In this document: piece by piece, positions 1-36,506 of the stretch
Position numbering within the stretch: the first letter of the stretch is position 1
Layout: each line of letters opens with the position of its first letter
DNA from: Neocallimastix sp. 'constans'
Taxonomy: Eukaryota
DNA length: 64,000 nt
Reading direction: 5' to 3'
NCBI GenBank assembly: GCA_050613775.1
Contig: JBODTK010000104.1
Coordinates: forward strand, 1-64,000
Translations under genes and position numbers: made by a program
The notes under the pieces: generated by a model
Database searches by the model: none
Seen by the model: only the letters and a program-made list of their open reading frames with translations
What the model was told of the DNA's origin: nothing

Positions 1-237
1 ATTTATATAATAAGAATTTCTAAATTCATTTCGGTTGAATTACGAACCGAAAGAATCTTTAACTTTCTATAATTTTATACAGAAAGAATATTCAAGAAGA
101 TATTATTAATAATTAATAAAATAATTAATAAAATAATTATTAATGCAAAATGGGTTGAGGTGTGAGTCGAACCCATGAAGTATTGGTCATGGTCATGTAA
201 CTAACCATTGAACCAAAGTTCTAATTTTACTAACTGT
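1..237 (-). mobile_element. Partial LTR related to element B (minus strand), carrying a tRNA-like A-box/B-box cassette
   Basis: The reverse complement reads AAAATTAGAACTT-TGGTTCAATGG...GGGTTCGACTCACACCT...TTTCTGTATAAA. This matches, in order, blocks of the B LTR (17590-17760), including 17 identical nt around the B-box. Confidence 0.65.
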
Positions 238-733
238 TGATAAGAATGTACTAAATAATGCATTCTTAATTAAATCTACGATTTATTTCTAATACATTAT
301 GTGTACATTATTATTTTTGTACTTTAATAAATTTTTAAATCCAAAGATCAAAAATTAAATCAAAAATTATATTAAACTTTATATTTTTATATTAAATCTT
401 ATATTAATAGTAATATTTTTATATATTTAAAACTTATATTAGCAATATTAATAATAAATCTTATTTTTTTTATATTAATAATGAAAATTTATATTAATAA
501 TATTTTTATATATTGATAATTAAAAATTTATATATTATATTTTAACTTTTTATTATAAAATTTTATATCGAAATGTTTTATTTTATATTGAAAAATATTT
601 TATTTTATTAAAAACCTTTATATTAGAATAGTATTTTTATTTTTATTTGAATATTTTAACAGATTGTAATAAAAATTATAGCCAATTAAATAAATTCTTA
701 TTAGTAATATTTTAGATATTTTTAAATAAATAA

Positions 734-786
<53 letters not shown>

Positions 787-1085
787 TTTTATTAATATTA
801 TAAATGTATTTTATTTATATTGTTATAATTAAATTTTATATAATTAATTATAAAAATCAATTTAAATTTAATAGTTTTTAAAAAAAAAAAATAAATAAAA
901 TGTAATTTAGTGGCAAGAACAACTTTTATGCCTTGAAAAAAAGTATAAATAGTTGTAAATTTTGCTACTAATTTTTAAATATCATCAAATAAAATCAAAT
1001 AAATTTATAAATAAAAATAATAAATAAATAAATAAAATTTGTGTTTCCTTACTTTATTTTTATTTAATTCTCTAAAACCTTAACA
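238..1085 (+). repeat. 5' LTR of A1
   Basis: TG...CA ends; near-identical to 8004-8850 and 15164-15989; TATA-like GTATAAATAG near 943. Confidence 0.93.
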
Positions 1086-1091
1086 TTTATA

Positions 1092-1111
1092 TGGTGGAGA
1101 TATCGGGGAAT
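1092..1111 (+). promoter_or_regulatory. Primer-binding site, tRNA-Ala type (also at 8857, 16794, 29670)
   Basis: TGGTGGAGATATCGGGGAAT is complementary to a tRNA 3' end ...CCCCGATATCTCCA-CCA, typical of eukaryotic tRNA-Ala. It is identical in families A and C. Confidence 0.8.
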
Positions 1112-1776
1112 TAAATAGAAATAATAGTAAATAACATAGATTTTTTTTTAATTTTTTTTTTATTTTATATTGATAAACAAGTAAGTCGTTAATCCTTTGA
1201 TTAACCCATGGCGCTTGTTTGATATATATATATAAAAAAAATTTTTTTTAAATAAGTAAAATTAAGATTCTAAAAAAACAAATTTTGTAAAATTATAACA
1301 AGGAGCGGATAGAGCTCATACACAGTGTATTCTCAGATAGCAACAAATTAACTCTATTCATAGTAGGTTATTGAATAGTAGTTAATTTGGAGATTAATTG
1401 GAAAGTAGACGAAGGTATTTGGTTACCGACCCGGTAATAATAGTTCAACCTTCAACGTTTCAACACACGAAGGTGCGGGTACTTTCCAAGCACTGGCGAA
1501 TAAGGAGCTTACGTCACCGAAGGCGTAAGATTGTTTTTTTTATATAATTTTTTTTACTTTTCTTTGTGCTAGTTATAAGGCACTTTATTATATAAAGTAT
1601 CAGACTTTGGCTAACTTCGCCATTTAAATTTTTTTTATTTTTTTTTATTACTGGTACTTTATTTGTTATATAATTCCTGTAATAGAATCTTAATTTACTT
1701 TGAAAATATTGTGTTTTTAGTTAATTTTTATTAGTTAATAAAAATATTATTGAATACTTTTAAAATTTTTTTATTC

Positions 1777-1936
1777 CGTACATAGATTATCGGATTAAGT
1801 TTATCCTACATAGTAATTGGGCTAGTGGGCTCTGAACTGCTATATTTTATATTGAATATAGTAATCGTGGCACACGCGTGGCATGACACCATTAGGTAAG
1901 CTGCACGTCAGACAGTGTGTACTATCAGATTGTACG
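1777..1936 (+). ncRNA. Conserved structured RNA element in the A/C leader (copies at 9542-9701, 23651-23814, 30359-30518)
   Basis: Apart from the PBS it is the only leader block clearly conserved between A and C. It shows compensatory changes, e.g. CGTACA/TGTACG versus CGTGCA/TGCACG. Confidence 0.65.
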
Positions 1937-2106
1937 ACAATAAAGATTATTTTTTTGTATTTAATAATTATAATTAATTAATAATTTTATTAGCTATAAC
2001 AATACAATATTTATCGTTTAAAAAGAAAAATTTTTGAAAGGTGAAAATAATAAATAAAACTTTGCTTCTAAATTTATTACTACAAATATACTAAATTACA
2101 AAATTC

Positions 2107-2294
2107 AAGTGGTCGATAAAGATTTCGAGCTTGAAAAATATTCTATTAAGTTGTCGATAAAGATTTCGAACTTAAAATTATTCTATTAAGTTGTCGATAA
2201 AGATTTCGAACTTAAAATTATTCTTAAAAAAGTAGTCGAAAAGAACCTCGTGCTTTATAATTTCTACTAAGTTGTCGATAAGGATTTCGAGCTT
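2107..2294 (+). repeat. Five ~40-bp tandem hairpin repeats in the A leader
   Basis: Unit AAGTTGTCGATAAAGATTTCGAACTT plus an AT-rich linker; present in all three A copies. Confidence 0.85.
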
Positions 2295-2476
2295 ATACTT
2301 ACTAAAGAAAGCAAATAAAATTATTATTTTCAAAAATTACTAAGATATATTGTTTTAAAATTTGATTCGATATTAAATTACTTGTTAAATTATATTTTTA
2401 AAGTTGGACTTTCAAATTTATTCGTATTTAATAACCTCGTTAATTTACAATAAAAAAATTATTAACTAAAAACGAA

Positions 2477-3382
2477 ATGTCTACTAAAAGTACTTTAAGT
2501 TTTAAAGAATTAAAGAAAGAATTACGAGACATAGTGAAGCTTAGCAAGGACAATTTAGATATAAAGTCCTGGGCTACTGAATTAAAACTTTGGATCAAGA
2601 TACAAGGTATCACAGATCCGGAAACAATATTTAATGCTTGTTTACTTACCAGCTCTGGTGAAGTACAACGCGTTATTGAAGATTTGGGAGAAGATAGTGA
2701 TGATGAAAGTGATGATTCATCAGATGAAGAAGAAGATGATGAAGAAGAAAATGTTGATGATGATAAATTTCCTTCTCTTGAAAAAATTATTTCAAGTCTT
2801 GAAAATTTTTACGGTATTAAAGAAGACCAAAATTTACTTCTTAAAGAACTTCGTGCAATGCGAATTAAAAGAAACGAAAAGATTAAAGACTTTAATGTAA
2901 GATATAGAACTTTGTACACTAAACTTGATAAAAAGAGAAGAAAGCGCATTGGTGTACTAGATTATATTGACTCTATTCAAAATAATTATGAAGCCTGGAA
3001 GAAATTATCCCTTAAAGATGATATAAGTATGGAGAAAGCTTTCAAAATTGCCGAGAAAGTAGATAGACTTTCTGTAAGGAACAATAATATTAATACCTAT
3101 AATGTTAATAATTCCCAGCATAATCAAAATAATCAAAACAGTACTACTTCAAGACTTTATCCTAAAAGAAGAAACGAAACTTTCCAAACAAGTCAAACAA
3201 ATAATAAACTGAAACCTCAAGATATTATAGAAGAATCAACCCAGAAAATGAGAAATTTATCTGTTAAAACTTGCTTCTTCTGTAAGGAAGAAGGTCATTA
3301 CTCATACTATTGCCCTCAATTAAATAAGATTATGGAAAAAAATAAAAAAGAAATATATTCCAAAAAGTCTTTAAACTTCTAA
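2477..3382 (+). CDS. gag: Gag, family A copy 1
   Basis: 301-aa ORF with an acidic tract and a C-terminal CCHC knuckle (CFFCKEEGHYSYYC), lying between PBS and pol. Confidence 0.93.
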   Translation: MSTKSTLSFKELKKELRDIVKLSKDNLDIKSWATELKLWIKIQGITDPETIFNACLLTSSGEVQRVIEDLGEDSDDESDDSSDEEEDDEEENVDDDKFPSLEKIISSLENFYGIKEDQNLLLKELRAMRIKRNEKIKDFNVRYRTLYTKLDKKRRKRIGVLDYIDSIQNNYEAWKKLSLKDDISMEKAFKIAEKVDRLSVRNNNINTYNVNNSQHNQNNQNSTTSRLYPKRRNETFQTSQTNNKLKPQDIIEESTQKMRNLSVKTCFFCKEEGHYSYYCPQLNKIMEKNKKEIYSKKSLNF

Positions 3383-3422
3383 ATGGGAGCAGAAGCACTC
3401 CCAATGACAAAACAATAGCTTC
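3370..3422 (+). promoter_or_regulatory. -1 ribosomal frameshift signal (UUUAAAC + H-type pseudoknot); copies at 11135, 24878, 31952
   Basis: In-frame T TTA AAC, a 7-nt spacer, stem TGGGAG/CTCCCA, and loop GAAGC pairing with downstream GCTTC. The -1 frame is open into pol. Confidence 0.85.
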
Positions 3423-6400
3423 ATTAAATAATTTACAAAATAATACTTTTACCAAGAATACCCCAATTGATAATAATTCCTTTAATAAAGAATCTGAAGA
3501 ATCTGATTTTAGTGACACAACTGAAAGTGAGGATGATATCATTATAAATGCTATAAAAAGAAAAATGAATGATAATAACAGCGAAAAGGAAGAAAATAAT
3601 TCCAAGAAAGTACATAAAAGTTTAAAAAGATAATCCACGTCCTTTCGCAACTCCTGCTTTAAGAAAGAAGAAAGAAAATGAGCTACATAATAAACCAAAT
3701 AAAGTTTATAAAAATCAAATACTTCCTTCAATTTTAACTCAACCAAATATTAACAAAGAAAAACAAAAAGAAAAGGAATTAAGAAAAATAAACAAGAGTA
3801 AGAGAAAGTAAAGAAGAAAACAACAATTATTCATCAAAAGGAAAGGAAAAAGTTGAATCTGAAGATATACTCGTAATCGATAATGAAATAGAAGATCTAG
3901 AAATGAATAAAGATAATCAACAAAATAAAACTAATACTTTGGAAAAATTAATTTCAACAAAAACTAAAGAAACTAATAATGGAAATACTCAGTTAGTAAA
4001 AAGGAATATTAAAATGATGAATAATAAAGAACCTTACAATATTATGGATGATTTAAAATAATCTTAAATCCAGTATTACGATAGGTCAACTCTTGAATGC
4101 ATGTCCGAAAATTCGTTCACAATTAACTCAAGGTTTAAAGTTAGAAAAGTCTAAAATAATTGGGACTGTAGACAATGTAATAGCACGAACTTTATTAGTA
4201 AATAACTATGATCATAGCTACATAAGTAAAAGTAATGAAGTAGCCGAAGAAGACTTAGCAATGGTTGATGCAAGTGTTGACGGAGTACTAGGAAAACTTT
4301 TAATTGATTCTTGTAGTAACCTAAGCATCGTTACTAAGCAGTATTTTGATAAATTACCTGGTGAATATGAAACAGTTGGAAAAAGTCGTGGAAGAATCCA
4401 ACTAGCAACACAAGATGAAGAATACTCGGAAGGAATTATTGTTCAATTACCAGTAAAAATTAATAATTATGAATTTAATGCGGACTTTAGAATTATTGAG
4501 AAAGAAGACTCATTTTATGATATGTTAATAAACTTTAAAACTCAAATCGATCATTGTTTATTTATTCATCCGACCTTAAACAGTTTATGTAAACTTTTGT
4601 CAGAAAGTGAATACGAAGAAATAGCTAAAATAAATAATCAATATTATGATGAAGAAAGTATAATTTGCACTATTAGAAAAGTTAAAGAAACGAATAATGA
4701 AAAGGAAATTATAAAGGAATTAACTCCAATGGAATTTATTGAGAGTGATGAATTTTTAAGTACCTTAAATAAAGATTATAAAGAACAAATTATTAAAATT
4801 CTCAAAGAAATGATTGACATAGTTGCCACTTCAACAGAAGAACTAACTCCTTCTAAACTTTCACCACATAAGATCCGTTTGAAAGCAAATGCAAAGCCAG
4901 TAAAATTAAGAAGTTATAGGTTAACTAAATTAAAATCAGATATCTTAAAAGAAGAACTTACAAAGCTTATTAAGAAAGGATTGATAGAACCATCCTGTTC
5001 AGAATGGTCATCTCCAGTAGTACTCATTCTAAAACACAATGGAAAGTGGCGCTTGTGTATTGACTACCGAAAAGTCAATGATATGACAGAAAAAGATTCT
5101 TATTCAGTTCCATATATAGATGAAATTTTTGATAGTCTCGGAGGATCTAAAATATTTACAACTCTTGATTTATTTTCTGGTTTTCACCAAATCTTAATGG
5201 ATGAAGAAAGCGTTGAAGTAACCACTTTCACTACTAAGTTTGGAAATTATCAATTTAAGGTTATGCCTTTTGGACTTACTGGAGCTCCCTCAACCTTCCA
5301 AAGAGAAATGAATAAAATTTTATTCCCTTTTATTGGTGAATTTGTTTATGTATTTATTGATGATGTTTTGATCTATTCAAAAAGTATCGAAGAACATTTA
5401 ATTCATATTAAACAAGTATTAGAAGTATTTAAAGAAAACAAGTTAAAAATTAATATTGAAAAGTGCCATTTTCTTCAAACTGAAGTTGATGTATTAGGTC
5501 ACAAACTTACTACTAAAGGATTAAGTCCCATGGAAAGTAAAATAACAGCTATTAAGAAGTGGGAAGCCCCTTCATCAATTCATGAATTAAGATCATTTCT
5601 AGGAGCAATAGGGTATTATCGTGACTTTATCCCTAAATATGCTCAAATTACCTCACCTTTATGTAAATTATTGAAAAAGAATACTAAATATGAATGGAAT
5701 AAAGAACAACAAGAAAGCTTTGAACTCCTAAAAGAAAAATTAATCAATGCACCTATTCTAAAATTTCCGTCATTTGACAAACCTTTTATCATTAGAACTG
5801 ATGCTTCGTATAATGGAATTGGTGGAGTTCTTTTACAAAAAGAAGAAGAAACCGGTAAGGAGCATCCAATACACTTTATAAGTAGAAGTTTGAAGAAAAC
5901 TGAAAAGAATTATGGTATCACAGATTTGGAAGGAACAGCTTTATTTTACTGTATGACTAAATTTAAATCTTATATTGAAGGAAATCCATTACCTACAACT
6001 ATTTACACAGATCATAAACCATTAGTTGGTTTATTTAAGAATAAAGAACCTTTGAATGCAAGGCAAACAAGATGGTGTCTAACCGCTAGTATGCTTGGAA
6101 TTAATATAAAATATGAATCAGGCAAAAAGAATGTGTTAGCTGATGCTCTTTCAAGAATGAAAAGTAAGGAAGAGAGAAAGATATTATTAACAAAAATTAC
6201 TAATGGAAATAATGAAGAATTATTATCTAAGGTTATAAAGGAATTTATTAATGAAAAGTTTACTGTTATTGATGGTGAAGATTACTTTATCGACAATGGA
6301 AATTATAGAAAATTAATAACGGACGAAAATGAAAGGTTTAAATTAATTTTAGAAGCTCATAATATTGGCCACGAAGGATATTACAAAACATATCAAAGAC

Positions 6401-7383
6401 TTAAGAAAAACTTTTATTGGAATCATATGATTAAAGATATCAAAAGAATTGTTAGTAATTGTGAAAAATGCCAATTAAATCGTCCTCAACCATATCCAGA
6501 ACCAACCGAAAACCATCCAACTAAAGTGGAGGGTCCCTTTGTGCATTTAGGATTAGATATTATAGGACCGTTACCAAAAACAAGAAATAATAATCAATAT
6601 ATTATAGTAACTGTTGATTACTTTACCAAATGGGTTGAAGCCGAACCCACTGAAAACATAACTTCCTCTGATATAATTAAATTTTTAATAAACGTTTTTG
6701 CAAGACATGGTGTACCTCAAGTTATTACTACTGATAATGGAGTCCAATTCACTTCTGATATGACTAAAATCTTTCTTGATCTTTATGATGTATATGTTAA
6801 ATTTGTAGCTACTTACCACCCTGAATCAAATGGCCTTACTGAAAATCGAAATAAAGAAATTGGAAAATTACTCCGTTTATTAGGAAGGAAAAATCAAGAT
6901 TGGGATGAAGTTTTACCTTCTGCTTTATGGGCACTTCGAACTACCAAAAATACAGCTACTGGACATTCTAGTTTTGAATTAGTATATGGAAGAGAAGACC
7001 AACAGCCTTATGATATAGCCATAAGAACAATTGAAAATGCAGGTAAATCATATGATGAAATCTTAATGGAAAAATTTGTTCGTCATTATCAATGGACTAG
7101 AGAAGCATGCGAAAATGTGAAGAATGCTAACAAGTATTGGGCAACAAGACGAGAAGAACAAATAAGTATGAAAAAAGGAAAAGAATTAAAGGCTGGTGAT
7201 CTTGTTCTTGTTAGAAACTTTAGCCGCACTAAGCTAGAACCATATTACAATGGACCATTTAAAATTTTAAAAATTCAATTCAACACGGCAACCCTAATCG
7301 ATCAGAAGACTGGAAAGCAACTCGATAGGAATGTTCACTTTAAAAATTTAGTAAAGTTTAACTCCGCTTACAGAGAAGCTTGA
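3370..7383 (+). CDS. pol: Pol, family A copy 1 (three +1 A-run insertions near 3629, 3790, 4058 relative to A2/A3)
   Basis: PR (IDSCS), RT (FIDD, MPFGL), RNase H (TDAS, TDHKPL), integrase (HHCC, DD35E, GPF). The continuous ORF covers only 4093-7383. Confidence 0.88.
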
Positions 7384-7897
7384 GTCTTCGTCGGGGCATC
7401 TTGATAAGAATGTACTAAATAATGCATTCTTAATTAAATCTACGATTTATTTCTAATACATTATGTGTACATTATTATTTTTGTACTTTAATAAATTTTT
7501 AAATCCAAAGATCAAAAATTAAATCAAAAATTATATTAAACTTTATATTTTTATATTAAATCTTATATTAATAGTAATATTTTTATATATTTAAAACTTA
7601 TATTAGCAATATTAATAATAAATCTTATTTTTTTTATATTAATAATGAAAATTTATATTAATAATATTTTTATATATTGATAATTAAAAATTTATATATT
7701 ATATTTTAACTTTTTATTATAAAATTTTATATCGAAATGTTTTATTTTATATTGAAAAATATTTTATTTTATTAAAAACCTTTATATTAGAATAGTATTT
7801 TTATTTTTATTTGAATATTTTAACAGATTGTAATAAAAATTATAGCCAATTAAATAAATTCTTATTAGTAATATTTTAGATATTTTTAAATAAATAA

Positions 7898-7950
<53 letters not shown>

Positions 7951-10241
7951 TTTTATTAATATTATAAATGTATTTTATTTATATTGTTATAATTAAATTT
8001 TATTGATAAGAATGTACTAAATAATGCATTCTTAATTAAATCTACGATTTATTTCTAATACATTATGTGTACATTATTATTTTTGTACTTTAATAAATTT
8101 TTAAATCCAAAGATCAAAAATTAAATCAAAAATTATATTAAACTTTATATTTTTATATTAAATCTTATATTAATAGTAATATTTTTATATATTTAAAACT
8201 TATATTAGCAATATTAATAATAAATCTTATTTTTTTTTATATTAATAATGAAAATTTATATTAATAATATTTTTATATATTGATAATTAAAAATTTATAT
8301 ATTATATTTTAACTTTTTATTATAAAATTTTATATCGAAATGCTTTATTTTATATTGAAAAATATTTTATTTTATTAAAAACCTTTATATTAGAATAGTA
8401 TTTTTATTTTTATTTGAATATTTTAACAGATTGTAATAAAAATTATAGCCAATTAAATAAATTCTTATTAGTAATATTTTAGATATTTTTAAATAAATAA
8501 ATAAAAAAAAAAAAAAAAAAAAAAAATAAAAAAAAAAAAAAAAAAAAAAATGTTTTATTAATATTATAAATGTATTTTATTTATATTGTTATAATTAAAT
8601 TTTATATAATTAATTATAAAAATCAATTTAAATTTAATAGTTTTTATAAAAAAAAAATAAATAAAATGTAATTTAGTGGCAAGAACAACTTTTATGCCTT
8701 GAAAAAAGTATAAATAGTTGTAAATTTTGCTACTAATTTTTAAATATCATCAAATAAAATCAAATAAATTTATAAATAAAAATAATAAATAAATAAATAA
8801 AATTTGTGTTTCCTTACTTTATTTTTATTTAATTCTCTAAAACCTTAACATTTATATGGTGGAGATATCGGGGAATTAAATAGAAATAATAGTAAATAAC
8901 ATAGATTTTTTTTTAATTTTTTTTTTATTTTATATTGATAAACAAGTAAGTCGTTAATCCTTTGATTAACCCATGGCGCTTGTTTGATATATATATATAA
9001 AAAAAATTTTTTTTAAATAAGTAAAATTAAGATTCTAAAAAAACAAATTTTGTAAAATTATAACAAGGAGCGGATAGAGCTCATACACAGTGTATTCTCA
9101 GATAGCAACAAATTAACTCTATTCATAGTAGGTTATTGAATAGTAGTTAATTTGGAGATTAATTGGAAAGTAGACGAAGGTATTTGGTTACCGACCCGGT
9201 AATAATAGTTCAACCTTCAACGTTTCAACACACGAAGGTGCGGGTACTTTCCAAGCACTGGCGAATAAGGAGCTTACGTCACCGAAGGCGTAAGATTGTT
9301 TTTTTTATATAATTTTTTTTACTTTTCTTTGTGCTAGTTATAAGGCACTTTATTATATAAAGTATCAGACTTTGGCTAACTTCGCCATTTAAATTTTTTT
9401 TATTTTTTTTTATTACTGGTACTTTATTTGTTATATAATTCCTGTAATAGAATCTTAATTTACTTTGAAAATATTGTGTTTTTAGTTAATTTTTATTAGT
9501 TAATAAAAATATTATTGAATACTTTTAAAATTTTTTTATTCCGTACATAGATTATCGGATTAAGTTTATCCTACATAGTAATTGGGCTAGTGGGCTCTGA
9601 ACTGCTATATTTTATATTGAATATAGTAATCGTGGCACACGCGTGGCATGACACCATTAGGTAAGCTGCACGTCAGACAGTGTGTACTATCAGATTGTAC
9701 GACAATAAAGATTATTTTTTTGTATTTAATAATTATAATTAATTAATAATTTTATTAGCTATAACAATACAATATTTATCGTTTAAAAAGAAAAATTTTT
9801 GAAAGGTGAAAATAATAAATAAAACTTTGCTTCTAAATTTATTACTACAAATATACTAAATTACAAAATTCAAGTGGTCGATAAAGATTTCGAGCTTGAA
9901 AAATATTCTATTAAGTTGTCGATAAAGATTTCGAACTTAAAATTATTCTATTAAGTTGTCGATAAAGATTTCGAACTTAAAATTATTCTTAAAAAAGTAG
10001 TCGAAAAGAACCTCGTGCTTTATAATTTCTACTAAGTTGTCGATAAGGATTTCGAGCTTATACTTACTAAAGAAAGCAAATAAAATTATTATTTTCAAAA
10101 ATTACTAAGATATATTGTTTTAAAATTTGATTCGATATTAAATTACTTGTTAAATTATATTTTTAAAGTTGGACTTTCAAATTTATTCGTATTTAATAAC
10201 CTCGTTAATTTACAATAAAAAAATTATTAACTAAAAACGAA

Positions 10242-15145: not shown

Positions 15146-16972
15146 GTCTTCGTCGGGGCATCTTGATAAGAATGTACTAAATAATGCATTCTTAATTAAA
15201 TCTACGATTTATTTCTAATACATTATGTGTACATTATTATTTTTGTACTTTAATAAATTTTTAAATCCAAAGATCAAAAATTAAATCAAAAATTATATTA
15301 AACTTTATATTTTTATATTAAATCTTATATTAATAGTAATATTTTTATATATTTAAAACTTATATTAGCAATATTAATAATAAATCTTATTTTTTTTTAT
15401 ATTAATAATGAAAATTTATATTAATAATATTTTTATATATTGATAATTAAAAATTTATATATTATATTTTAACTTTTTATTATAAAATTTTATATCGAAA
15501 TGCTTTATTTTATATTGAAAAATATTTTATTTTATTAAAAACCTTTATATTAGAATAGTATTTTTATTTTTATTTGAATATTTTAACAGATTGTAATAAA
15601 AATTATAGCCAATTAAATAAATTCTTATTAGTAATATTTTAGATATTTTTAAATAAATAAATAAATAAAAAAAAAAAAAAAAAAAAAAATGTTTTATTAA
15701 TATTATAAATGTATTTTATTTATATTGTTATAATTAAATTTTATATAATTAATTATAAAAATCAATTTAAATTTAATAGTTTTTATAAAAAAAAAATAAA
15801 TAAAATGTAATTTAGTGGCAAGAACAACTTTTATGCCTTGAAAAAAGTATAAATAGTTGTAAATTTTGCTACTAATTTTTAAATATCATCAAATAAAATC
15901 AAATAAATTTATAAATAAAAATAATAAATAAATAAATAAAATTTGTGTTTCCTTACTTTATTTTTATTTAATTCTCTAAAACCTTAACACATGATAATAC
16001 AGAATGAACAAATAATACTAATTGTGCTAGAATAATATAAATTATTCTAACCTTATAGATTATTCTATTCTATATAATTGGAACTTTCCAATATTCTTCA
16101 AATATTACTAAATAGAAAATCTTAAGTTAATAAATCACTAATTAACTTATAATTCCTTTTTGAATTATCGATCCGATTCCATTATAATGTATTAAAAATC
16201 TTTAGCCAAGAATATTGTCCTTGCCCACTTAATATATTAATATTATATTTCTTTTGTATTATGTTATATTGAAAATAATCAAATCTATTTAATTAGTTAT
16301 TAAAATTTTCGTTATCAATTTAAATTTATTTTTAATTACTAAATTTAACTAAACCACAATAAAATATTCTGTATAATCTCTTTATTTTTATTTTATATAT
16401 ATTAGTATTAAACTATTATTAAATAATTAATAATTCAATAATATATAACTACTATTTATAACAATAATATTATTAACTAAAATAATAATTCAATTTCAAT
16501 TTAAATGTTTTATTTATAAAAATAATTAGTAATTAGTTTATTAAAAAAATAGTTAGGCTTTACAAATTTTAATTTGATAAAAAAATATAAATACATGTAA
16601 TTTTAGTGAAATAAAATATAATCAAAAAAACTTTCTTTTTATTAAATAAATAATTATATTATTATTTTTTTTTTATAAATTTAAATAAATAAATATTGAT
16701 TTTAAAACAAATTATTTTTTTTTATTGTAATTTTATTATTTGTGTTAATTATTATTATATTCCTAAAATTATATGAACCATACCATGAAAAATTGGTGGA
16801 GATATCGGGGAATATAATAATAAATTAATACATTGGGGATAAAATTATAATATTAATAAATAATTTTTCTAATAAAACAAATATTTTTTTTTAAAAAAAG
16901 AAAACAATTTTTATATTTTTAACTAATTATTATTAATTGTTAAAAATATTAATTAATGTAACGAATCTTAAA

Positions 16973-17587
16973 TGATACGATATTTTATTAAATACCGTAT
17001 ATGTTAGTTGGGCGTTTGTGCAAAAGGGAATTACTCCAAGAATATTATATTACAATAATTATATTTACTTTTTATTTATTTATCTTTTATTATTTTATTT
17101 ATTATATTTTATCATAAAAAAAATACATGTTTTATTATTATTCCTTAAAAAAAAAGAAAATATTTATTTATAAATTATTTTCATAATTATATTTTTTACT
17201 AATTTTATAAATTTTATTTATCGAAACACTAAAATTAATTAATAAATATAAATATCCATAACTTTTTACTTATAACTATTAATTCATCTTGTTTAACATT
17301 ATTTAAAAATTATTTTAATATTAACATCAATTTAATTAAACATTCAATCTCCGTTATAATTAATATAACTAATTTTACTATATTATCAACAATTCTTTTA
17401 ATATTTTTAATATTATTATTTAATTTAATATTTTAATAATTAATAATAATAAATTATCTTTAATAATATATTAATAATATATTTTAAGATTCATTATATA
17501 AAATTAATTTTTAATAAATATTTATATTAATAATTTTTCTAAATAATTTTTCTATTATTTTCTATTATTTTTACTGGACATGCATCA
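16973..17587. mobile_element. Solo LTR inserted in the 5' LTR of B
   Basis: 615 bp absent from the 3' LTR of B; ends TGATAC...GCATCA; 4-bp TSD TAAA. Confidence 0.85.
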
Positions 17588-17610
17588 TAAAAAATTAGAA
17601 ATTAGAATGC

Positions 17611-17663
17611 TGGCATAGTGGTTAGTCACTATGACCTCAGCCTGAACCACTAGGGTTCGACTC
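17611..17663 (+). promoter_or_regulatory. tRNA-type Pol III internal promoter inside the B LTR (second copy 23052-23104)
   Basis: A-box TGGCATAGTGG and B-box GGTTCGACTC at tRNA-like spacing, with a T4 run shortly downstream; no cloverleaf. Confidence 0.75.
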
Positions 17664-18182
17664 ACACCTTTACTAAAATTTTATATCATTTAAATTTTAA
17701 AGAATTTTTATACTTCATTTCTGTATTTGTTTCTGTATTTGTTTCTGTATAAATTTCTGAAAAAATTAACAAAAGACATTCTTAGAAATTAATAGAAACA
17801 AATCAGATAGAAATTCTATTTTAATTTATCTTTTATCATTATTTCTTTTAGATTCTTTTTAACCGAAAATAATCAATTTTTATGAAACTTTTTAATGATT
17901 TTATGGTTTTAAATTTTTATGGATTTAAATTTTGAAAAACTATAAATAGGAGTGAATTTCGCAGCCAAAAAAAAAAAATATTTTAAAAATTGTGTTTTTA
18001 TTAATTATTGAATTAATTAATAAGTAATTCGAAATATTACAATAATTAATCTTTATAATTAATATTTTTAAATTTCTTAATTAATAAAACTATATTTTAA
18101 AAAACCAAATTACTTATTAATCAAAAAGTGCTTACCTATTGTGTTACACTCTTTAAAACACGGATATTCCAATATTCGTTAC

Positions 18183-18193
18183 AATAAAAACAC
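18183..18193 (+). promoter_or_regulatory. Self-priming PBS of B
   Basis: AATAAAAACAC is complementary to GTGTTTTTATT at 17992-18002, about 50 nt downstream of TATAAATA (17941). There is no TGG tRNA-type PBS. Confidence 0.75.
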
Positions 18194-18230
18194 CACTAAA
18201 CTAAGCACAATACCTTTGCACTTTTACTCT

Positions 18231-18803: not shown

Positions 18804-22705
<3,902 letters not shown>

Positions 22706-23972
22706 ATATAAATCATTTAATCAAAAATAAATTTTATTTCATCAAAGTACTATTAATCATTCTAACTTATGATTATTTTAAAAAAAAAAAAAAATTATTT
22801 TATATTATTCAAAAACATTTATTCTAGATAGTTTTATTTTTATACTTTATTTTTAAAACTTAAAATTCATGTAATTTTTATTATCCAATGTATTAATTAA
22901 ATTATCACTCCTATAAGTAATTTAGTTATAGTTTATTATTATAAAAGTTAGAATTAGAAATAGTTTAGATTTAAAGCAAAAGATTCGTCTGGCATCCGAA
23001 TCCTAGAGGAGGACCATGTAACGAATCTTAAAAAATTAGAAATTAGAATGCTGGCATAGTGGTTAGTCACTATGACCTCAGCCTGAACCACTAGGGTTCG
23101 ACTCACACCTTTACTAAAATTTTATATCATTTAAATTTTAAAGAATTTTTATACTTCATTTCTGTATTTGTTTCTGTATTTGTTTCTGTATAAATTTCTG
23201 AAAAAATTAACAAAAGACATTCTTAGAAATTAATAGAAACAAATCAGATAGAAATTCTATTTTAATTTATCTTTTATCATTATTTCTTTTAGATTCTTTT
23301 TAACCGAAAATAATCAATTTTTATGAAACTTTTTAATGATTTTATGGTTTTAAATTTTTATGGATTTAAATTTTGAAAAACTATAAATAGGAGTGAATTT
23401 CGCAGCCAAAAAAAAAAAAATATTTTAAAAATTGTGTTTTTATTAATTATTGAATTAATTAATAAGTAATTCGAAATATTACAATAATTAATCTTTATAA
23501 TTAATATTTTTAAATTTCTTAATTAATAAAACTATATTTTAAAAAACCAAATTACTTATTAATCAAAAAGTGCTTACCTATTGTGTTACACTCTTTAAAA
23601 CACGGATATTCCAATATTCGTTACAATTAATATTAAATTAAACTAATATTCGTGCATAGATTTCCGGGTTAAGTTTATCCTACATAGTAATTGGGCTAGT
23701 AGGCTCTGGACTGCTATTTTTTATATTGAAAATAGTAACCGTGGCACACGCGTGGCATGACACCTTTCAAGAGGTAAGCTGCACGTCAGACAGTGTGTAC
23801 TATCAGATTGCACGATTATTATAATTTAATAAGTGATTAACAATAATAAATAATTAATAATTTTATTAGTTAAAAGATTTATTTTTTTTAATTTTTTTTA
23901 TTTTTACTTTTTTTTATAACAATTTATACATTACGAGGTTTAGCATTCTATAGATACAATAAATTTTATTTT

Positions 23973-28721: not shown

Positions 28722-28794
28722 TACCCAAACCCGGGTTCGAACCGGAGACCTTTTGCGTGTAAAGCAAACGTGATAACCACTACACTATTTGGAT
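28722..28794 (-). tRNA. tRNA-Val (anticodon UAC)
   Basis: ATCCAAA-TAGTGTAGTGGTTATCAC-G-TTTGC-TTTACAC-GCAAA-AGGTC-TCCGG-TTCGAAC-CCGGG-TTTGGGT-A: a full 73-nt cloverleaf followed by a T-run terminator. Confidence 0.95.
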
Positions 28795-29297
28795 ATTTCT
28801 TGCCATGAATTGATAAGAATGTACTAAATAATGCATTCTTAATTAAATCTACGATTTATTTCTAATACATTATGTGTACATTATTATTTTTGTACTTTAA
28901 TAAATTTTTAAATTCAAAGATTAAAAATTAGATCAAAAATTATATTAAACTTTATAATTTTTATATTAAATCTTATATTAATAGTAATATTTTTATATAT
29001 TTAAAACTTATATTAACAATATTAATAATAAATCTTATTTTTTTATTTTTATATTAATAATGAAAATTTGTATTAATAATATTTTTATATATTGATAATT
29101 AAAAATTTATATATTATATTTTAACTTTTATTATAAAATTTTATATCGAAATGTTTTATTTTATATTGAAAAATATTTTATTTTATTAAAAACCTTTATA
29201 TTAGAATAGTATTTTTATTTTTATTTGAATATTTTAACAGATTGTAATAAAAATTTTAGCCAATTAAATAAATTCTTATTAGTAATATTTTAGATAG

Positions 29298-29338
<41 letters not shown>

Positions 29339-31052
29339 TATTAATATTATAAATGTATTTTATTTATATTGTTATAATTAAATTTTATATAATTGATTAT
29401 AAAAATCAATTTAAATTTAATAGTTTTTATATATAAAAAGAAAAATAATAATAAAATGTAATTTAGTGGCAAGAACAACTTTTATGCCTTGAAAAAAAAA
29501 GTATAAATAGTTGTAAATTTTGCTACTAATTTTTAAATATCATCAAATAAAATAAAATAAAATAAAATAAAATAAAATAAATTTATAAATAAAAATAATA
29601 AATAAAAAAAATAAAATTTGTGTTTCTTACTTTATTTTTATTTAATTCTCTAAAACCTTAACATTTATATGGTGGAGATATCGGGGAATTAAATAGAAAT
29701 AATAGTAAATAACATAGATTTTTTTTAATTTTTTTTTATTTTATATTGATAAACAAGTAAGTCGTTAATCCTTTGATTAACCTATGGCGCTTGTTTGATA
29801 TATATATAAAAAAATTTTTTTTAAATAAGTAAAATTAAGATTCAAAAAAAAAAAAAAAAATTTTGTAAAATTATAACAAGGAGCGGATAGAGCTCATACA
29901 CAGTGTATTCTCAGATAGCAACAAATTAACTCTATTCATAGTAGGTTATTGAATAGTAGTTAATTTGGAGATTAATTGGAAAGTAGACGAAGGTATTTGG
30001 TTACCGACCCGGTAATAATAGTTCAGCCTTCAACGTTTCAACACACGAAGGTGCGGGTACTTTCCAAGCACTGGCGAATAAGGAGCTTACGTCACCGAAG
30101 GCGTAAGATTGTTTTTTTTATATATATTTTTTTTTTACTTTTCTTTGTGCTAGTTATAAGGCACTTTATTATATAAAGTATCAGACTTTGGCTAACTTCG
30201 CCATTTAAATTTTTTTTATTTTTTTTTATTACTGATACTTTATTTGTTTAATAATTCCTGTAAAAGAATCTTAATTTACTTGAAAATATTGTGTTTTTAG
30301 TTAATTTTTATTAGTTAATAAAAATATTATTGAATACTTTTAAAATTTTTTTTTATTCCGTACATAGATTATCGGATTAAGTTTATCCTACATAGTAATT
30401 GGGCTAGTAGGCTCTGAACTGCTATATTTTATATTGAATATAGTAATCGTGGCACACGCGTGGCATGACACCATTAGGTAAGCTGCACGTCAGACAGTGT
30501 GTACTATCAGATTGTACGACAATAAAGATTATTTTTTTGTATTTAATAATTATAATTAATTAATAATTTTATTAGCTATAACAATACAATATTTATCGTT
30601 TAAAAAGAAAAATTTTTGAAAGGTGAAAATAATAAATAAAACTTTGCTTCTAAATTTATTACTACAAATATACTAAATTACAAAATTCAAGTGGTCGATA
30701 AAGGTTTCGAGCTTGAAAAATATTCTATTGAGTTGTCGATAAAGATTTCGAACTTAAAATTATTCTATTGAGTTGTCGATAAAGATTTCGAACTTAAAAA
30801 TTATTCTTAATAAAGTAGTCGAAAAGAACCTCGTGCTTTATAATTTCTACTAAGTTGTCGATAAGGATTTCGAGCTTATATCTACTAAAGAAAGCAAATA
30901 AAATTATTATTTTCAAAAGTTACTAAAATATATTGTTTTAAAAATTGATTCGATATTAAATTACCTATTAAATTATATTTTTAAAGTTGTATTTCCAAAT
31001 TTATTCTTATTTAATCACCTCATTAATATACAACAAGAAATATTTAAACAAA

Positions 31053-31964
31053 ATGTCCAAGGAAACAACTTTGAGCTTTAAAGAATTGAAAAAAGAATTA
31101 AGAGATATTGTGAAACTTAGCAAGGACAATTTAGATATTAAGTCCTGGGCTACTGAATTAAAACTTTGGATCAAGATACAAGGTATTACAGATCCAGAAA
31201 CAATATTTAATGCTTGTTTACTTACCAGCTCTGGTGAAGTACAACGCGTTATTGAAGATTTGGGAGAAGATAGTGATGATGAAAGTGATGATTCATCAGA
31301 TGAAGAAGAAGATGATGATGAAGAAGAAAATGTTGATGATGATATTAAATTTCCTTCCCTTGAAAAAATTATTTCAAGTCTTGAAAATTTTTACGGTATT
31401 AAAGAAGACCAAAATTTACTTCTTAAAGAACTTCGTGCAATGCGAATTAAAAGAAACGAAAAGATTAAAGACTTTAATGTAAGATATAGAACTTTGTACA
31501 CTAAACTTGATAAAAAGAGAAGAAAGCGCATTGGTGTACTAGATTATATTGATTCTATTCAAAATAATTATGAAGCCTGGAAGAAATTATCCCTTAAAGA
31601 TGATATAAGTATGGATAAAGCTTTCAAAATTGCCGAGAAAGTAGATAGACTTTCTGTAAGGAACAATAATATTAATACCTATAATGTTAATAATTCCCAA
31701 CATAATCAAAATAATCAAAACAGTACTACTTCAAGACTTTATCCTAAAAGAAGAAACGAAACTTTCCAAACAAATCAAACAAATAATAAACCGAAACCTC
31801 AAGATATTATAGAAGAATCAACCCAGAAAATGAGAAATTTATCCGTTAAAACTTGCTTCTTCTGTAAGGAAGAAGGTCATTACTCATACTATTGCCCTCA
31901 ATTAAATAAGATTATGGAAAAAAATAAAAAAGAAATATATTCCAAAAAGTCTTTAAACTTCTAA
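31053..31964 (+). CDS. gag: Gag, family A copy 3
   Basis: ATG at 31053 (MSKETTLSFKEL) chosen by alignment with A1/A2; CCHC knuckle. Confidence 0.92.
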   Translation: MSKETTLSFKELKKELRDIVKLSKDNLDIKSWATELKLWIKIQGITDPETIFNACLLTSSGEVQRVIEDLGEDSDDESDDSSDEEEDDDEEENVDDDIKFPSLEKIISSLENFYGIKEDQNLLLKELRAMRIKRNEKIKDFNVRYRTLYTKLDKKRRKRIGVLDYIDSIQNNYEAWKKLSLKDDISMDKAFKIAEKVDRLSVRNNNINTYNVNNSQHNQNNQNSTTSRLYPKRRNETFQTNQTNNKPKPQDIIEESTQKMRNLSVKTCFFCKEEGHYSYYCPQLNKIMEKNKKEIYSKKSLNF

Positions 31965-34900
31965 ATGGGAGCAGAAGCACTCCCAATGACAAAACAATAG
32001 CTTCATTAAATAATTTACAAAATAATACTTTTACTAAGAATACTCCAATTGATAATAATTCCTTTAACGAAGAATCTGAAGAATCTGATTTTAGTGACAC
32101 AACTGAAAGTGAGGATGATATCATTATAAATGCTGTAAAAAGAAAAATGAATGATAATAACAGCGAAAAAGAAGAAAATAATTCCAAGAAAGTACATAAA
32201 AGTTTAAAAGATAATCCACGTCCTTTTGCAACTCCTGCTTTAAGAAAGAAGAAAGAAAATGAGCTGCATAATAAACCAAATAAAGTTTATAAAAATCAAA
32301 TACTTCCTTCAATTTTAACTCAACCAAATATTAACAAAGAAAAACAAAAAGAAAAGGAATTAAGAAATATGACAAGAGTAAGAGAAAGTAAAGAAGAAAA
32401 CAACAATTATTCATCAAAAGGAAAGGAAAAAGTTGAATCTGAAGATATACTTGTAATCGATAATGAAATAGAAGATCTAGAAATGAATAAAGATAATCAA
32501 CAAAATAAAACTAATACTTTGGAAAAATTAATTTCAACAAAAACTAAGGAAACTAATAATGGAAATACTCAATTAGTAAAAAGGAATATCAAAATGATGA
32601 ATAATAAAGAACCTTACAATATTATGGATGATTTAAATAATCTTAAATCCAGTATTACGATAGGTCAACTCTTGAATGCATGTCCTAAAATTCGTTCACA
32701 ATTAACTCAAGGTTTAAAGTTAGAAAAGTCTAAAATAATTGGAACTGTAGACAATGTAATAGCACGAACTTTATTAGTAAATAACTATGACCATAGCTAC
32801 ATAAGTAAAAGTAATGAAGTAGCCGAAGAAGACTTAGCAATGGTTGATGCAAGTGTTGACGGAGTACTAGGAAAACTTTTAATTGATTCTTGTAGTAACC
32901 TAAGCATCGTTACTAAGCAGTATTTTGATAAATTACCTGGTGAATATGAAACAGTTGGAAAAAGTCGTGGAAGAATCCAACTAGCAACACAAGATGAAGA
33001 ATACTCGGAAGGAATTATTGTTCGATTACCAGTAAAAATTAATAATTATGAATTTAATGCGGACTTTAGAATTATTGAGAAAGAAGACTCATTTTATGAT
33101 ATGTTAATAAACTTTAAAACTCAAATCGATCATTGTTTATTTATTCATCCAACCTTAAACAGTCTATGTAAACTTTTGTCAGAAAGTGAATACGAAGAAA
33201 TAGCTAAAATAAATAATCAATATTATGATGAAGAAAGTATAATCTGCACTATTAGAAAAGTTGAAGAAACGAATAATGAAAAGGAAATTATAAAGGAATT
33301 AACTCCAATGGAATTTATTGAGAGTGATGAATTTTTAAGTACCTTAAATAAAGATTATAAAGAACAAATTATTAAAATTCTCAAAGAAATGATTGACATA
33401 GTTGCCACTTCAACAGAAGAACTAACTCCTTCTAAACTTTCACCACATAAGATCCGTTTGAAAGCAAATGCAAAGCCAGTAAAATTAAGAAGTTATAGGT
33501 TAACTAAATTAAAATCAGATATCTTAAAAGAAGAACTTACAAAGCTTATTAAGAAAGGATTGATAGAACCATCCTGTTCAGAATGGTCATCTCCAGTAGT
33601 ACTCATTCTAAAACACAATGGAAAGTGGCGCTTGTGCATTGACTACCGAAAAGTCAATGATATGACAGAAAAAGATTCTTATTCAGTTCCATATATAGAT
33701 GAAATTTTTGATAGTCTCGGAGGAGCTAAAATATTTACAACTCTTGATTTATTTTCTGGTTTTCACCAAATCTTAATGGATGAAGAAAGCGTTGAAGTAA
33801 CCACTTTCACTACTAAGTTTGGAAATTATCAATTTAAGGTTATGCCTTTTGGACTTACTGGAGCTCCCTCAACCTTCCAAAGAGAAATGAATAAAATTTT
33901 ATTCCCTTTTATTGGTGAATTTGTTTATGTATTTATTGATGATGTTTTGATCTATTCAAAAAGTATCGAAGAACATTTAATTCATATTAAACAAGTATTA
34001 GAAGTATTTAAAGAAAACAAGTTAAAAATTAATATTGAAAAGTGCCATTTTCTTCAAACTGAAGTTGATGTATTAGGTCACAAACTTACTACTAAAGGAT
34101 TAAGTCCCATGGAAAGTAAGATAACAGCTATTAAGAAGTGGGAAGCCCCTTCATCACTTCATGAATTAAGATCATTTTTAGGAGCAGTGGGATATTATCG
34201 TGATTTTATTCCTAAATATGCTCAAATTACCTCACCTTTATGTAAATTATTGAAAAAGAATACCAAATATGAATGGAATAAAGAACAACAAGAAAGCTTT
34301 GAACTCCTAAAAGAAAAATTAATCAATGCACCTATTCTAAAATTTCCGTCATTTGACAAACCTTTTATCATTAGAACTGATGCTTCGTATAATGGAATTG
34401 GTGGAGTTCTTTTACAAAAAGAAGAAGAAACCGGTAAGGAGCATCCAATACACTTTATAAGTAGAAGTTTAAAGAAAGCTGAAAAGAATTATGGTATTAC
34501 CGATTTAGAAGGAACCGCTTTGTTTTACTGTATGACTAAATTTAAATCTTATATTGAAGGAAATCCATTACCTACAACTATTTACACAGATCATAAACCA
34601 TTAGTTGGTTTATTTAAGAATAAAGAACCTTTGAATGCAAGGCAAACAAGATGGTGTCTAACCGCTAGTATGCTCGGAATTAATATAAAATATGAATCAG
34701 GCAAAAAGAATGTGTTAGCTGATGCTCTTTCAAGAATGAAAAGTAAGGAAGAGAGAAAGATATTATTAACAAAAATTACTAATGGAAATAATGAAGAATT
34801 ATTATCTAAAGTTATAAAGGAATTTATTAATGAAAAGTTTACTGTTATTGATGGTGAAGATTATTTTATCGACAATGGAAATTATAGAAAATTAATAACG

Positions 34901-35962
34901 GACGAAAATGAAAGGTTTAAATTAATTTTAGAAGCTCATAATATTGGCCACGAAGGATATTACAAAACATATCAAAGACTTAAGAAAAACTTTTATTGGA
35001 ATCATATGATTAAAGATATCAAAAGAATTGTTAGTAATTGTGAAAAATGCCAGTTAAATCGTCCTCAACCATATCCAGAACCAACCGAAAACCATCCAAC
35101 TAAAGTGGAGGGTCCCTTTGTGCATTTAGGATTAGATATTATAGGACCGTTACCAAAAACAAGAAATAATAATCAATATATTATAGTAACTGTTGATTAC
35201 TTTACCAAATGGGTTGAAGCCGAACCCACTGAAAACATAACTTCCTCTGATATAATTAAATTTTTAATAAACGTTTTTGCAAGACATGGTGTGCCTCAAG
35301 TTATTACTACAGATAATGGAGTCCAATTCACTTCTGATATGACTAAAATCTTTCTTGATCTTTATGATGTTTATGTAAAATTCATAGCTACCTATCACCC
35401 TGAATCCAATGGTCTCACTGAAAACCGAAATAAAGAAATTGGAAAATTACTTCGTTTATTAGGAAGGAAAAATCAAGATTGGGATGAAGTTTTACCTTCT
35501 GCTTTATGGGCACTTCGAACTACTAAAAACACAGCTACCGGACATTCTAGTTTTGAATTAGTATATGGAAGAGAAGACCAACAGCCTTATGATATAGCCA
35601 TAAGAACAATTGAAAATGCAGGTAAATCGTATGATGAAATTTTAATGGAAAAATTTGTTCGTCATTATCAATGGACTAGAGAAGCATGCGAAAATGTGAA
35701 GAATGCTAACAAGTATTGGGCAACAAGACGAGAAGAACAAATAAGTATGAAAAAAGGAAAAGAATTAAAGGCTGGTGATCTTGTTCTTGTTAGAAACTTT
35801 AGCCGCACTAAGCTAGAACCATATTACAATGGACCATTTAAAATTTTAAAAATTCAATTCAACACGGCAACCTTAATCGATCAGAAAACTGGGAAACAAC
35901 TCGATAGGAATGTTCATTTTAAAAATTTAGTAAAGTTTAACTCCGCTTACAGAGAAGCTTGA
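31952..35962 (+). CDS. pol: Pol, family A copy 3 (via -1 frameshift; first ATG 32147)
   Basis: Uninterrupted PR-RT-RH-IN. Confidence 0.95.
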   Translation, partial: FKLLNGSRSTPNDKTIASLNNLQNNTFTKNTPIDNNSFNEESEESDFSDTTESEDDIIINAVKRKMNDNNSEKEENNSKKVHKSLKDNPRPFATPALRKKKENELHNKPNKVYKNQILPSILTQPNINKEKQKEKELRNMTRVRESKEENNNYSSKGKEKVESEDILVIDNEIEDLEMNKDNQQNKTNTLEKLISTKTKETNNGNTQLVKRNIKMMNNKEPYNIMDDLNNLKSSITIGQLLNACPKIRSQLTQGLKLEKSKIIGTVDNVIARTLLVNNYDHSYISKSNEVAEEDLAMVDASVDGVLGKLLIDSCSNLSIVTKQYFDKLPGEYETVGKSRGRIQLATQDEEYSEGIIVRLPVKINNYEFNADFRIIEKEDSFYDMLINFKTQIDHCLFIHPTLNSLCKLLSESEYEEIAKINNQYYDEESIICTIRKVEETNNEKEIIKELTPMEFIESDEFLSTLNKDYKEQIIKILKEMIDIVATSTEELTPSKLSPHKIRLKANAKPVKLRSYRLTKLKSDILKEELTKLIKKGLIEPSCSEWSSPVVLILKHNGKWRLCIDYRKVNDMTEKDSYSVPYIDEIFDSLGGAKIFTTLDLFSGFHQILMDEESVEVTTFTTKFGNYQFKVMPFGLTGAPSTFQREMNKILFPFIGEFVYVFIDDVLIYSKSIEEHLIHIKQVLEVFKENKLKINIEKCHFLQTEVDVLGHKLTTKGLSPMESKITAIKKWEAPSSLHELRSFLGAVGYYRDFIPKYAQITSPLCKLLKKNTKYEWNKEQQESFELLKEKLINAPILKFPSFDKPFIIRTDASYNGIGGVLLQKEEETGKEHPIHFISRSLKKAEKNYGITDLEGTALFYCMTKFKSYIEGNPLPTTIYTDHKPLVGLFKNKEPLNARQTRWCLTASMLGINIKYESGKKNVLADALSRMKSKEERKILLTKITNGNNEELLSKVIKEFINEKFTVIDGEDYFIDNGNYRKLITDENERFKLILEAHNIGHEGYYKTYQRLKKNFYWNHMIKDIKRIVSNCEKCQLNRPQPYPEPTENHPTKVEGPFVHLGLDIIGPLPKTRNNNQYIIVTVDYFTKWVEAEPTENITSSDIIKFLINVFARHGVPQVITTDNGVQFTSDMTKIFLDLYDVYVKFIATYHPESNGLTENRNKEIGKLLRLLGRKNQDWDEVLPSALWALRTTKNTATGHSSFELVYGREDQQPYDIAIRTIENAGKSYDEILMEKFVRHYQWTREACENVKNANKYWATRREEQISMKKGKELKAGDLVLVRNFSRTKLEPYYNGPFKILKIQFNTATLIDQKTGKQLDRNVHFKNLVKFNSAYREA

Positions 35963-36467
35963 GTCTTCGTCGGGGCATCTTGATAAGAATGTACTAAATA
36001 ATGCATTCTTAATTAAATCTACGATTTATTTCTAATACATTATGTGTACATTATTATTTTTGTACTTTAATAAATTTTTAAATTCAAAGATTAAAAATTA
36101 GATCAAAAATTATATTAAACTTTATAATTTTTATATTAAATCTTATATTAATAGTAATATTTTTATATATTTAAAACTTATATTAACAATATTAATAATA
36201 AATCTTATTTTTTTATTTTTATATTAATAATGAAAATTTGTATTAATAATATTTTTATATATTGATAATTAAAAATTTATATATTATATTTTAACTTTTA
36301 TTATAAAATTTTATATCGAAATGTTTTATTTTATATTGAAAAATATTTTATTTTATTAAAAACCTTTATATTAGAATAGTATTTTTATTTTTATTTGAAT
36401 ATTTTAACAGATTGTAATAAAAATTTTAGCCAATTAAATAAATTCTTATTAGTAATATTTTAGATAG

Positions 36468-36506
<39 letters not shown>

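Follow-up and report, generated by a model that had tools for sequence, protein, structure and literature searches.

Near the left end of the DNA stretch analysed here (64 kb, hereafter the window), a Ty3/gypsy element without a chromodomain, A1 (238..8003, plus strand; 5' LTR 238-1085, cut 3' LTR 7402-8003), begins a short distance from two boxes that resemble a tRNA promoter. Are these boxes part of the LTR of another element, and did they draw A1 to this position? They are carried by a segment, X (1..237, minus strand), which contains an A-box (TGGTTCAATGG, 215-205, minus strand) and a 17-mer (GGGTTCGACTCACACCT, 174-158, minus strand) composed of the B-box core (174-164) and a 6-nt tail. 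The 17-mer is identical at 17/17 positions to the LTRs of element B, a chromovirus further along the window. Both motifs are present on the minus strand, as the first-pass annotation had reported. A spacer of 22 nt (216..237, minus strand) separates the A-box from the A1 junction, and the first T4 run (147..150, minus strand), 13 nt past the B-box core, is a possible Pol III terminator.

The layout in X and in B is that of a type 2 Pol III promoter, with an A-box and a B-box at tRNA-like spacing: the gaps are 31 nt in X, 32 in B and 33 in the tRNA-Val gene of the window. The B-box fits GWTCRANNC, the consensus given in PMC4228148 (partial text). PMC7245038 (partial text) offers no A-box consensus fit for use here. 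With up to three mismatches allowed, the 17-mer has three matches in the window (158, 17653 and 23094), namely X and both LTRs of B, while shuffled sequences had 0.02 matches on average and 0/100 of them reached three. Neither cassette gave a tRNA hit with ARAGORN or Rfam, the latter returning only chance-level matches at both, and the predicted fold is not a cloverleaf.

As for the nature of X, the first-pass annotation had called it a diverged B-like LTR. The window by itself is insufficient for that call, because past the B-box X resembles B hardly more than chance would allow: as good an alignment score came from 9 of 300 shuffles and an equal or better one from 17 of the 621 control segments of AT-rich DNA, and S, an unrelated insert, did better than X in the same comparison. 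The window is very AT-rich and consists mainly of Ty3/gypsy elements, with LTR regions of only about 12-15% G+C. Contigs from public runs, outside the window, are more informative. They run over position 1, so that X extends leftward beyond the window, and approximately 13 nt of its LTR tip are gone at the A1 junction. A contig of 187 nt in run X4 (depth 241) covers 147-236 with three other letters and one gap, and past 236 it has, instead of A1, a 14-nt LTR tip that by eye resembles TGTAACGAATCTT of B. Upstream of this tip, in that single contig, is a tract identical by eye at 14/16 positions to the polypurine region of B (23001-23016). In run X5, the consensus of three contigs gives the same tip (agreement 0.79). 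The A1-free contigs (one in X4, the consensus of three in X5) read past 236 into TGTAACGAA-type LTR starts, and the TG start of these uninterrupted copies, found in the loose ends behind 236, is common to the LTR tip of B. The distance between LTR start and A-box is 35 nt both in the uninterrupted X copy and in B. Since uninterrupted copies continue into a B-type LTR start and polypurine tract, the outside contigs support the identification of X as the 5' (U3) LTR part of a multi-copy, B-related family, and the proposal of a B-like LTR is borne out. 'Diverged' is an apt description in the sense of a different multi-copy family and a poor one in the sense of a decayed copy.

Contigs that match the cassette core with no other letters reach depths of 7173 in run X6 and 685 in X5, whereas most other listed pieces over the cassette have depths of 24-50 and 4.7-7.9, respectively; although depth does not equal copy number, this fits a young multi-copy family. 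Most of the X5 and X6 depth has an extra base at 194/195. The window copy is thus 1 nt short, and the A-to-B spacing of the X family equals the 42 nt of B. Most runs that contain the LTR of B are faeces or gut metagenomes.

Element B comprises a 5' LTR interrupted by S (16957..18183, plus strand; A-box at 17611, 17-mer at 17653), a gag-pol ORF with a chromodomain (18809..22705, plus strand; 1298 codons), and a polypurine tract (23001-23016) followed by an intact 609-nt 3' LTR (together 23001..23625, plus strand; A-box at 23052). The chromodomain follows the integrase (PF00385, E 9e-18), and the element is flanked by a 5-nt duplication, ATTAA. Gene models labelled Orpsp1, an anaerobic gut fungus, are the nearest relatives with a name for both polyproteins, at 70% identity for B and 51% for A. 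Together with the faeces and gut metagenomes that contain B's LTR, this makes a neocallimastigomycete the likely host. In place of a tRNA primer site, B carries a self-complementary segment of 11 nt at LTR nt 418-428 (17992..18002, plus strand, as derived from the LTR alignment; 3' LTR copy at 23434-23444). It is complementary to 18183-18193, a match length reached by 8 of 2000 shuffles. Self-priming signatures of this kind have been described for Tf1 and Tj1 (PMC4600332, partial text). Tandem, GC-richer repeats occupy 18230-18472 in the 5' leader, just past the primer site. In the same window, two further elements, D (37493-44506) and E (44510-51556), show self-priming-type complementarity of 10-11 nt and have no A/B cassette.

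The B cassette spans LTR nt 36-94, and the RNA start expected from the self-priming site is near nt 418, which would place the Pol II start approximately 325 nt downstream of the B-box; a TATAAA is found at nt 366, and runs of T4 and T5 occur 15 and 41 nt after the B-box core. Because the self-priming site puts the RNA start so far downstream, the cassette is likely not the promoter of B's genomic RNA. The window copy of B is RT-defective, with an in-frame loss of about 112 RT residues that include the xDLxxA(Y/F) motif found in 21/21 aligned relatives, and autonomous members of the family are only putative carriers of the cassette. The two LTRs of this copy are identical bar one indel and the insert S, and a 99% identical protein of the same length as that of B is present in the database (P0001, six members). 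Given these near-identical LTRs and this protein, an RT-dead derivative may be mobilised in trans.

Four A/B-box units are found in the window, and in three of them, X, tRNA-Val and the 5' LTR of B, the end of an LTR lies 22-23 nt from the A-box. The reference is tRNA-Val(TAC), a genuine Pol III gene (28722..28794, minus strand; A-box at 28787): a complete A element, A3 (28811..36831, plus strand), sits 23 nt from its A-box with a 4-nt duplication, GAAT. In the 5' LTR of B, the near end of S, a solo-LTR-like TGAT...ATCA insert of 615 nt (16973..17587) with a 4-nt duplication, TAAA, is also 23 nt from the A-box. S is assigned to the A-like group only by its termini, its 4-nt duplication and a start that it has in common with an LTR-like sequence beside A3; in DNA so rich in A and T, shuffle tests that compared the LTRs of A, F, S and S2 with one another do not discriminate. 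At X, 22 nt intervene between the A-box and A1, whose LTR starts with TGATAAG at 238, like the five other A LTRs. The 3' LTR of B is the sole unit of the four without an insertion upstream. The first-pass annotation had A1 starting at 238, 23 nt from the A-box, in the same geometry as A3. The start is correct and 23 is the coordinate difference, but by that count A3 and S are both at 24, so the geometries differ by 1 nt. The divergent orientation it described is confirmed, with the A1 ORFs on the plus strand and the cassette on the minus strand.

With the A-box taken at +8 (PMC5391098, partial text), the offset corresponds to 15-16 nt upstream of the equivalent of mature-tRNA position +1: 16 nt at tRNA-Val, and 15 and 16 nt at the X and B cassettes. 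Reported distances upstream, counted from the mature tRNA, average 15 bp for DGLT-A and are about 15 bp for Ty3 (PMC5006619, partial text), and intact boxes are required for Ty3 insertion (PMC5911963, partial text). The fixed offset is found at three of the five junction sites of the window. If tRNA-Val is taken as setting the distance, the probability that at least two of the other four sites would fall within 1 nt of it at one of the three cassettes by chance is about 3e-7. The A-clade junctions at 8004 and about 15990 have no adjoining A-box. The LTR spacers have no evident sequence in common with that of tRNA-Val. As the inserts (A1 and S) and the LTR families are both different, the two LTR hits are independent, and the earlier claim that LTR-borne cassettes are targeted recurrently stands, with A1 lacking a matching duplication. 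The tRNA-Val site was probably itself hit twice, since an LTR-like start (36832-36860, TGATACG..., 18/24 like S) directly follows the duplication of A3.

Other elements abut one another in this region. A2 (8004-15989) directly follows A1, whose 3' LTR (7402-8003) ends at LTR nt 602 against the 5' LTR of A2 with no matching duplication; the A1/A2 boundary is a recombination or an assembly join. F, a diverged A-clade element (15990-16815 and 23631-28624), begins 2 nt after the end of A2, has the primer-site motif of A and contains B within its 5' region; its pol stops short just before tRNA-Val, and it has no 3' LTR. On the minus strand, D (37488-44511 with its 5-nt duplication, GATTG) includes in that duplication the first 2 nt of the LTR of E, so that D at E, like A2/F, is an insertion 2 nt inside the start of another LTR.

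The X/A1 junction is one-sided: the sequence to its left is CTGT and the A1-A2 block ends in CATG, so A1 has no matching target-site duplication, in contrast to the 4 nt at A3 and S, and the missing LTR tip of X was not found in the window. A later rearrangement is the simplest reading of the missing duplication, the cut 3' LTR and the absent tip. Three listed contigs cross the junction, two with different sequences in X5 (146-265 and 218-267) and one in X2 (208-263), each falling below the 31-letter bridging rule on at least one side.

Is the cassette maintained by selection? Between the boxes, which the first-pass annotation had described as diverged, X and B agree at 7/8 positions just after the A-box and at the next 6/6, and at only 5/16 just before the B-box; the description therefore applies to the last 16 nt and not to the first part. 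The B-box is a sharp peak of identity, 17/17 flanked by 5/16 and 12/30. The A-box, at 7/11 against 11/22 in the ungapped upstream spacer, forms no clear peak of raw identity, but all four of its changes between X and B fall at degenerate positions of the consensus (p about 0.045). Three further A-box variants were found in loose ends: TGGTCTAGTGG in four contigs, CGGTCTAGTGG in one and TGGTTTAATGG in two contigs in each of two runs. All three keep GG...A.TGG and the 42-nt A-to-B spacing, and one alters the first T; overall, changes are confined to degenerate positions in four of the five variants. Among the contigs listed, differences near the B-box occur at 162-163 and 181 and none in the core (164-174). 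Stretches outside the boxes are also conserved (the LTR tip, TTAGT, TGACC and ACACCT), and the contigs were chosen by their match to the cassette, which biases them towards apparent conservation. The earlier claim that the boxes are under selection is thus supported, if less firmly than the LTR identity and the recurrent targeting, by the B-box peak, the consensus positions and the fixed spacing, and not by raw identity at the A-box. On balance, these comparisons make selection on the boxes probable.

We also looked for the cassette elsewhere. In metagenome contigs (42 of 64 parts scanned), the 17-mer was found at 120 loci, none of which has a G+C below 0.30 around the match; 109 belong to an unrelated GC-rich SINE and 11 are others. 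That SINE (among L004-L123) is tRNA-derived, comes from an unrelated host and has the identical 17-mer in its B-box region. A 16-mer scan of viral contigs gave three loci, all unrelated and GC-rich. Searches with the pol of B returned 64 distant RT matches (24-35% identity) in viral contigs and 28 loci in genome contigs, the top seven of which have short LTR stubs only, with no cassette; no pattern of boxes is seen in these stubs, which come from relatives with 48-50% protein identity. In bacterial and archaeal bins that possibly include fungal contigs, the cassette pattern was detected in 0/5, 0/31 and 0/106 genomes. A DNA search matched mainly AT-rich stretches, none over the B-box, and the loci retrieved were without an LTR-type cassette. 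Some prokaryotic MAGs contain AT-rich gypsy contigs that are probably fungal contamination (L124-L128, L130, L231, L232, L236 and L237). The scans collected no gut-fungal cassette loci for a family alignment free of cassette bias.

Our explanation of the locus is that the cassette of a B-related LTR assembles TFIIIC and TFIIIB and that the Ty3-like element A homed on this complex, 22 nt upstream of the A-box. We hold this to be likely, with good though incomplete confidence. TFIIIC would bind the boxes and place TFIIIB upstream, and the integration complex of A would be tethered at the TFIIIB/TFIIIC site, as for Ty3 or DGLT-A, whose tethering factors are TBP/Brf1 and Tfc4, respectively (PMC6101501, partial text). 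That the mimic recruits the tRNA transcription machinery is the likely reason why A lands at a fixed offset from it. The LTR identity, the boxes, their spacing and the repeated offset are read directly from the DNA; from the analogy with Ty3 and DGLT-A, we infer factor binding and integrase tethering at the cassette. The integrase of A matches that of Ty3 (E 2e-21 over residues 27-357) more weakly than a foamy-virus integrase, and its C-terminus alone has no Ty3 match in the PDB.

Other readings have to be weighed against this one. An origin of X from a decayed tRNA gene or from a SINE, with no connection to an LTR, which the first-pass annotation had also considered, would agree with the near-chance similarity to B downstream of the B-box, and a SINE with the same 17-mer does exist elsewhere. 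We rejected it as barely conceivable: uninterrupted copies have an LTR tip and polypurine tract directly upstream and the 35-nt offset of B, and ARAGORN, Rfam and folding revealed neither a tRNA nor a cloverleaf. It is very improbable that the adjacency of X and A1 reflects a rearrangement or an assembly join and not an integration. The absence of a target duplication, the cut 3' LTR of A1 and the missing LTR tip are what such a join would leave, but the boundary falls exactly at the first base of A1, differing by at most 1 nt from the offset of two sites with 4-nt duplications, and it is crossed by contigs from X2 and X5, albeit below the bridging rule, including the two of different sequence in X5. 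X might alternatively be the LTR of a short, non-coding, Helenus-like element, with the cassette as Pol III promoter of the genomic RNA. Degenerate tRNA sequences of this kind, with the boxes conserved, are present in Helenus LTRs (PMC10886601, partial text), the internal region of X lies outside the window and the window copy of B is itself non-autonomous. Nevertheless, we find this improbable, in view of the T4 runs at 13 nt (X) or 15 nt (B) and the T5 run at 41 nt (B) after the B-box core, the gag-pol ORF between 609-nt LTRs where the longest Helenus LTR has 323 bp (PMC10886601, partial text), and the self-priming site that sets the RNA start of B at nt 418, X having the LTR tip and polypurine tract of B.

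Two more alternatives concern what is selected, if anything. The LTR and its targeting could be as proposed and the cassette a passenger: the head of a tRNA or SINE that was captured a single time, kept without benefit and exploited by A. The weak A-box conservation relative to the upstream spacer, the conserved non-box stretches, the identical 17-mer at the head of an unrelated SINE, the empty LTR stubs of the relatives at 48-50% identity and the fact that the cassette draws insertions that remove the LTR tip all speak for it. We nonetheless regard it as unlikely, as the B-box has stayed at 17/17 where similarity in the LTR downstream of it has fallen nearly to chance, the A-box changes keep to degenerate positions in 4/5 variants at a fixed 42-nt spacing, and a G+C-rich string has been retained amid LTR regions of such low G+C. 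Finally, the selected product might be a short Pol III RNA, about 90 nt long and folded into a hairpin that spans the A-box, with a role in the life cycle or against silencing. In X, the segment 148-222 has a folding z of -3.8, equalled by 1 of 200 shuffles, the same region in B (23045-23120) folds weakly at z -1.65 (15 of 200), and a T run follows the B-box; by eye, one of the loose-end A-box variants could also pair there. However, the fold windows were hand-chosen, the pairing register differs between X and B, and promoter function alone would explain the conservation of the boxes, so we give this idea little credence. Run X15 (RNA) has no contig over 145-216 and is uninformative on a short Pol III RNA.

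If the cassette assembles Pol III factors, as in our explanation, and is likely not a promoter of genomic RNA, a role in chromatin is suggested. It is tempting to regard it as a chromatin boundary that travels with the element, at the host-facing end of U3, and that would keep the Pol II promoter shielded within the heterochromatin to which a chromodomain integrase can be expected to bring the element. In yeast, Pol III complexes serve as insulators and as barriers to heterochromatin (PMC4228148, partial text), and the chromodomain is expected to favour H3K9-methylated chromatin (PMC4600332, partial text). By this analogy, a boundary is the function that we prefer for the cassette, if only tentatively. 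A broader scenario, for which our confidence is lower still, is that a gut-fungus chromovirus lineage domesticated a tRNA promoter as an LTR-tip boundary for its expression in targeted heterochromatin, and that a tRNA-seeking clade lands there and seeds nested clusters. The cost to the carrier may be small, inasmuch as progeny would not receive a copy of an insertion that lies in the 5' U3, like the one in B. In the 3' LTR, a bound Pol III complex could obstruct the Pol II transcript of B itself.

The arrangement is of interest beyond this locus. LTRs with tRNA-like parts have been described as promoters in tiny non-coding elements, whereas here the carrier is a coding chromovirus lineage in which the cassette is probably not a promoter. 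This offers a test of how heterochromatin-targeting elements remain expressible. Insertions at a fixed offset serve as a natural readout, in vivo, that the mimic is recognised, and one transposon here provides the targets of another. If A is truly Pol III-targeted, targeting of the Ty3/DGLT-A type would extend to anaerobic gut fungi, and a site-specific integration tool for these organisms could be envisaged. In the largely open-access full-text literature searched, no paper described chromovirus LTRs, those of the Tf1 type included, with an A/B cassette, a second LTR element that targets such a cassette, or gut-fungal elements that target tRNA genes; Table S1 of the Helenus study and Repbase may list further LTRs of this kind.

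How does this system compare with known ones? Like X and B, the elements Helenus (TRIMp3), Cassandra and Ajax have LTRs with a segment derived from a small RNA, and Helenus in particular has a non-functional tRNA-like sequence conserved at boxes A and B and, in fungi, a 5-bp duplication as seen for B (PMC10886601, partial text). Fungal Helenus elements are known from rusts and agarics, are linked to Copia, and their cassette was proposed to be a promoter; Helenus is non-coding, with a length of 311-1263 bp and LTRs of at most 323 bp (PMC10886601, partial text). B, in contrast, has 609-nt LTRs, a gypsy gag-pol with a chromodomain, self-priming and a cassette far upstream of the predicted RNA start. 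The same study, whose analysis covers TRIMs only, observes that the LTRs in Repbase with tRNA-like parts are 'not a few', so that such LTRs are not without precedent beyond TRIMs (PMC10886601, partial text). The chromodomain and the self-complementary primer site (11 nt in B) ally it with self-priming chromoviruses of the Tf1 type (PMC4600332, partial text). Yeast tDNA and ETC boundary elements have the B-box GWTCRANNC in common with the cassette, and their bound complexes are insulators or barriers (PMC4228148, partial text); they are fixed host loci, however, while the cassette is mobile and its boundary role putative. On the side of the incoming element, Ty3 of S. cerevisiae, DGLT-A of Dictyostelium and Tj1 of S. 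japonicus are gypsy elements that insert about 15 nt upstream of mature tRNAs, as A does, and DGLT-A also has no chromodomain. The A clade differs in its 4-nt duplications (GAAT and TAAA; 5 nt for Ty3 and Tj1), in the lack of a Ty3-like C-terminal match and in having the LTR of another element among its targets. A precedent for such bare boxes is TRE5-A, a tRNA-targeting element that lands at A/B boxes without tRNA context on Dictyostelium rDNA, insertions that were read as evidence of TFIIIC/TFIIIB assembly there (PMC5391098, partial text). Unlike A, TRE5-A is a non-LTR element that inserts about 47 bp upstream, and its A/B loci lie on the rDNA palindrome and not in a mobile LTR (PMC5391098, partial text). 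The closest precedents are therefore Helenus for the cassette, Ty3 and DGLT-A for the geometry, and TRE5-A on rDNA for the use of A/B boxes alone.
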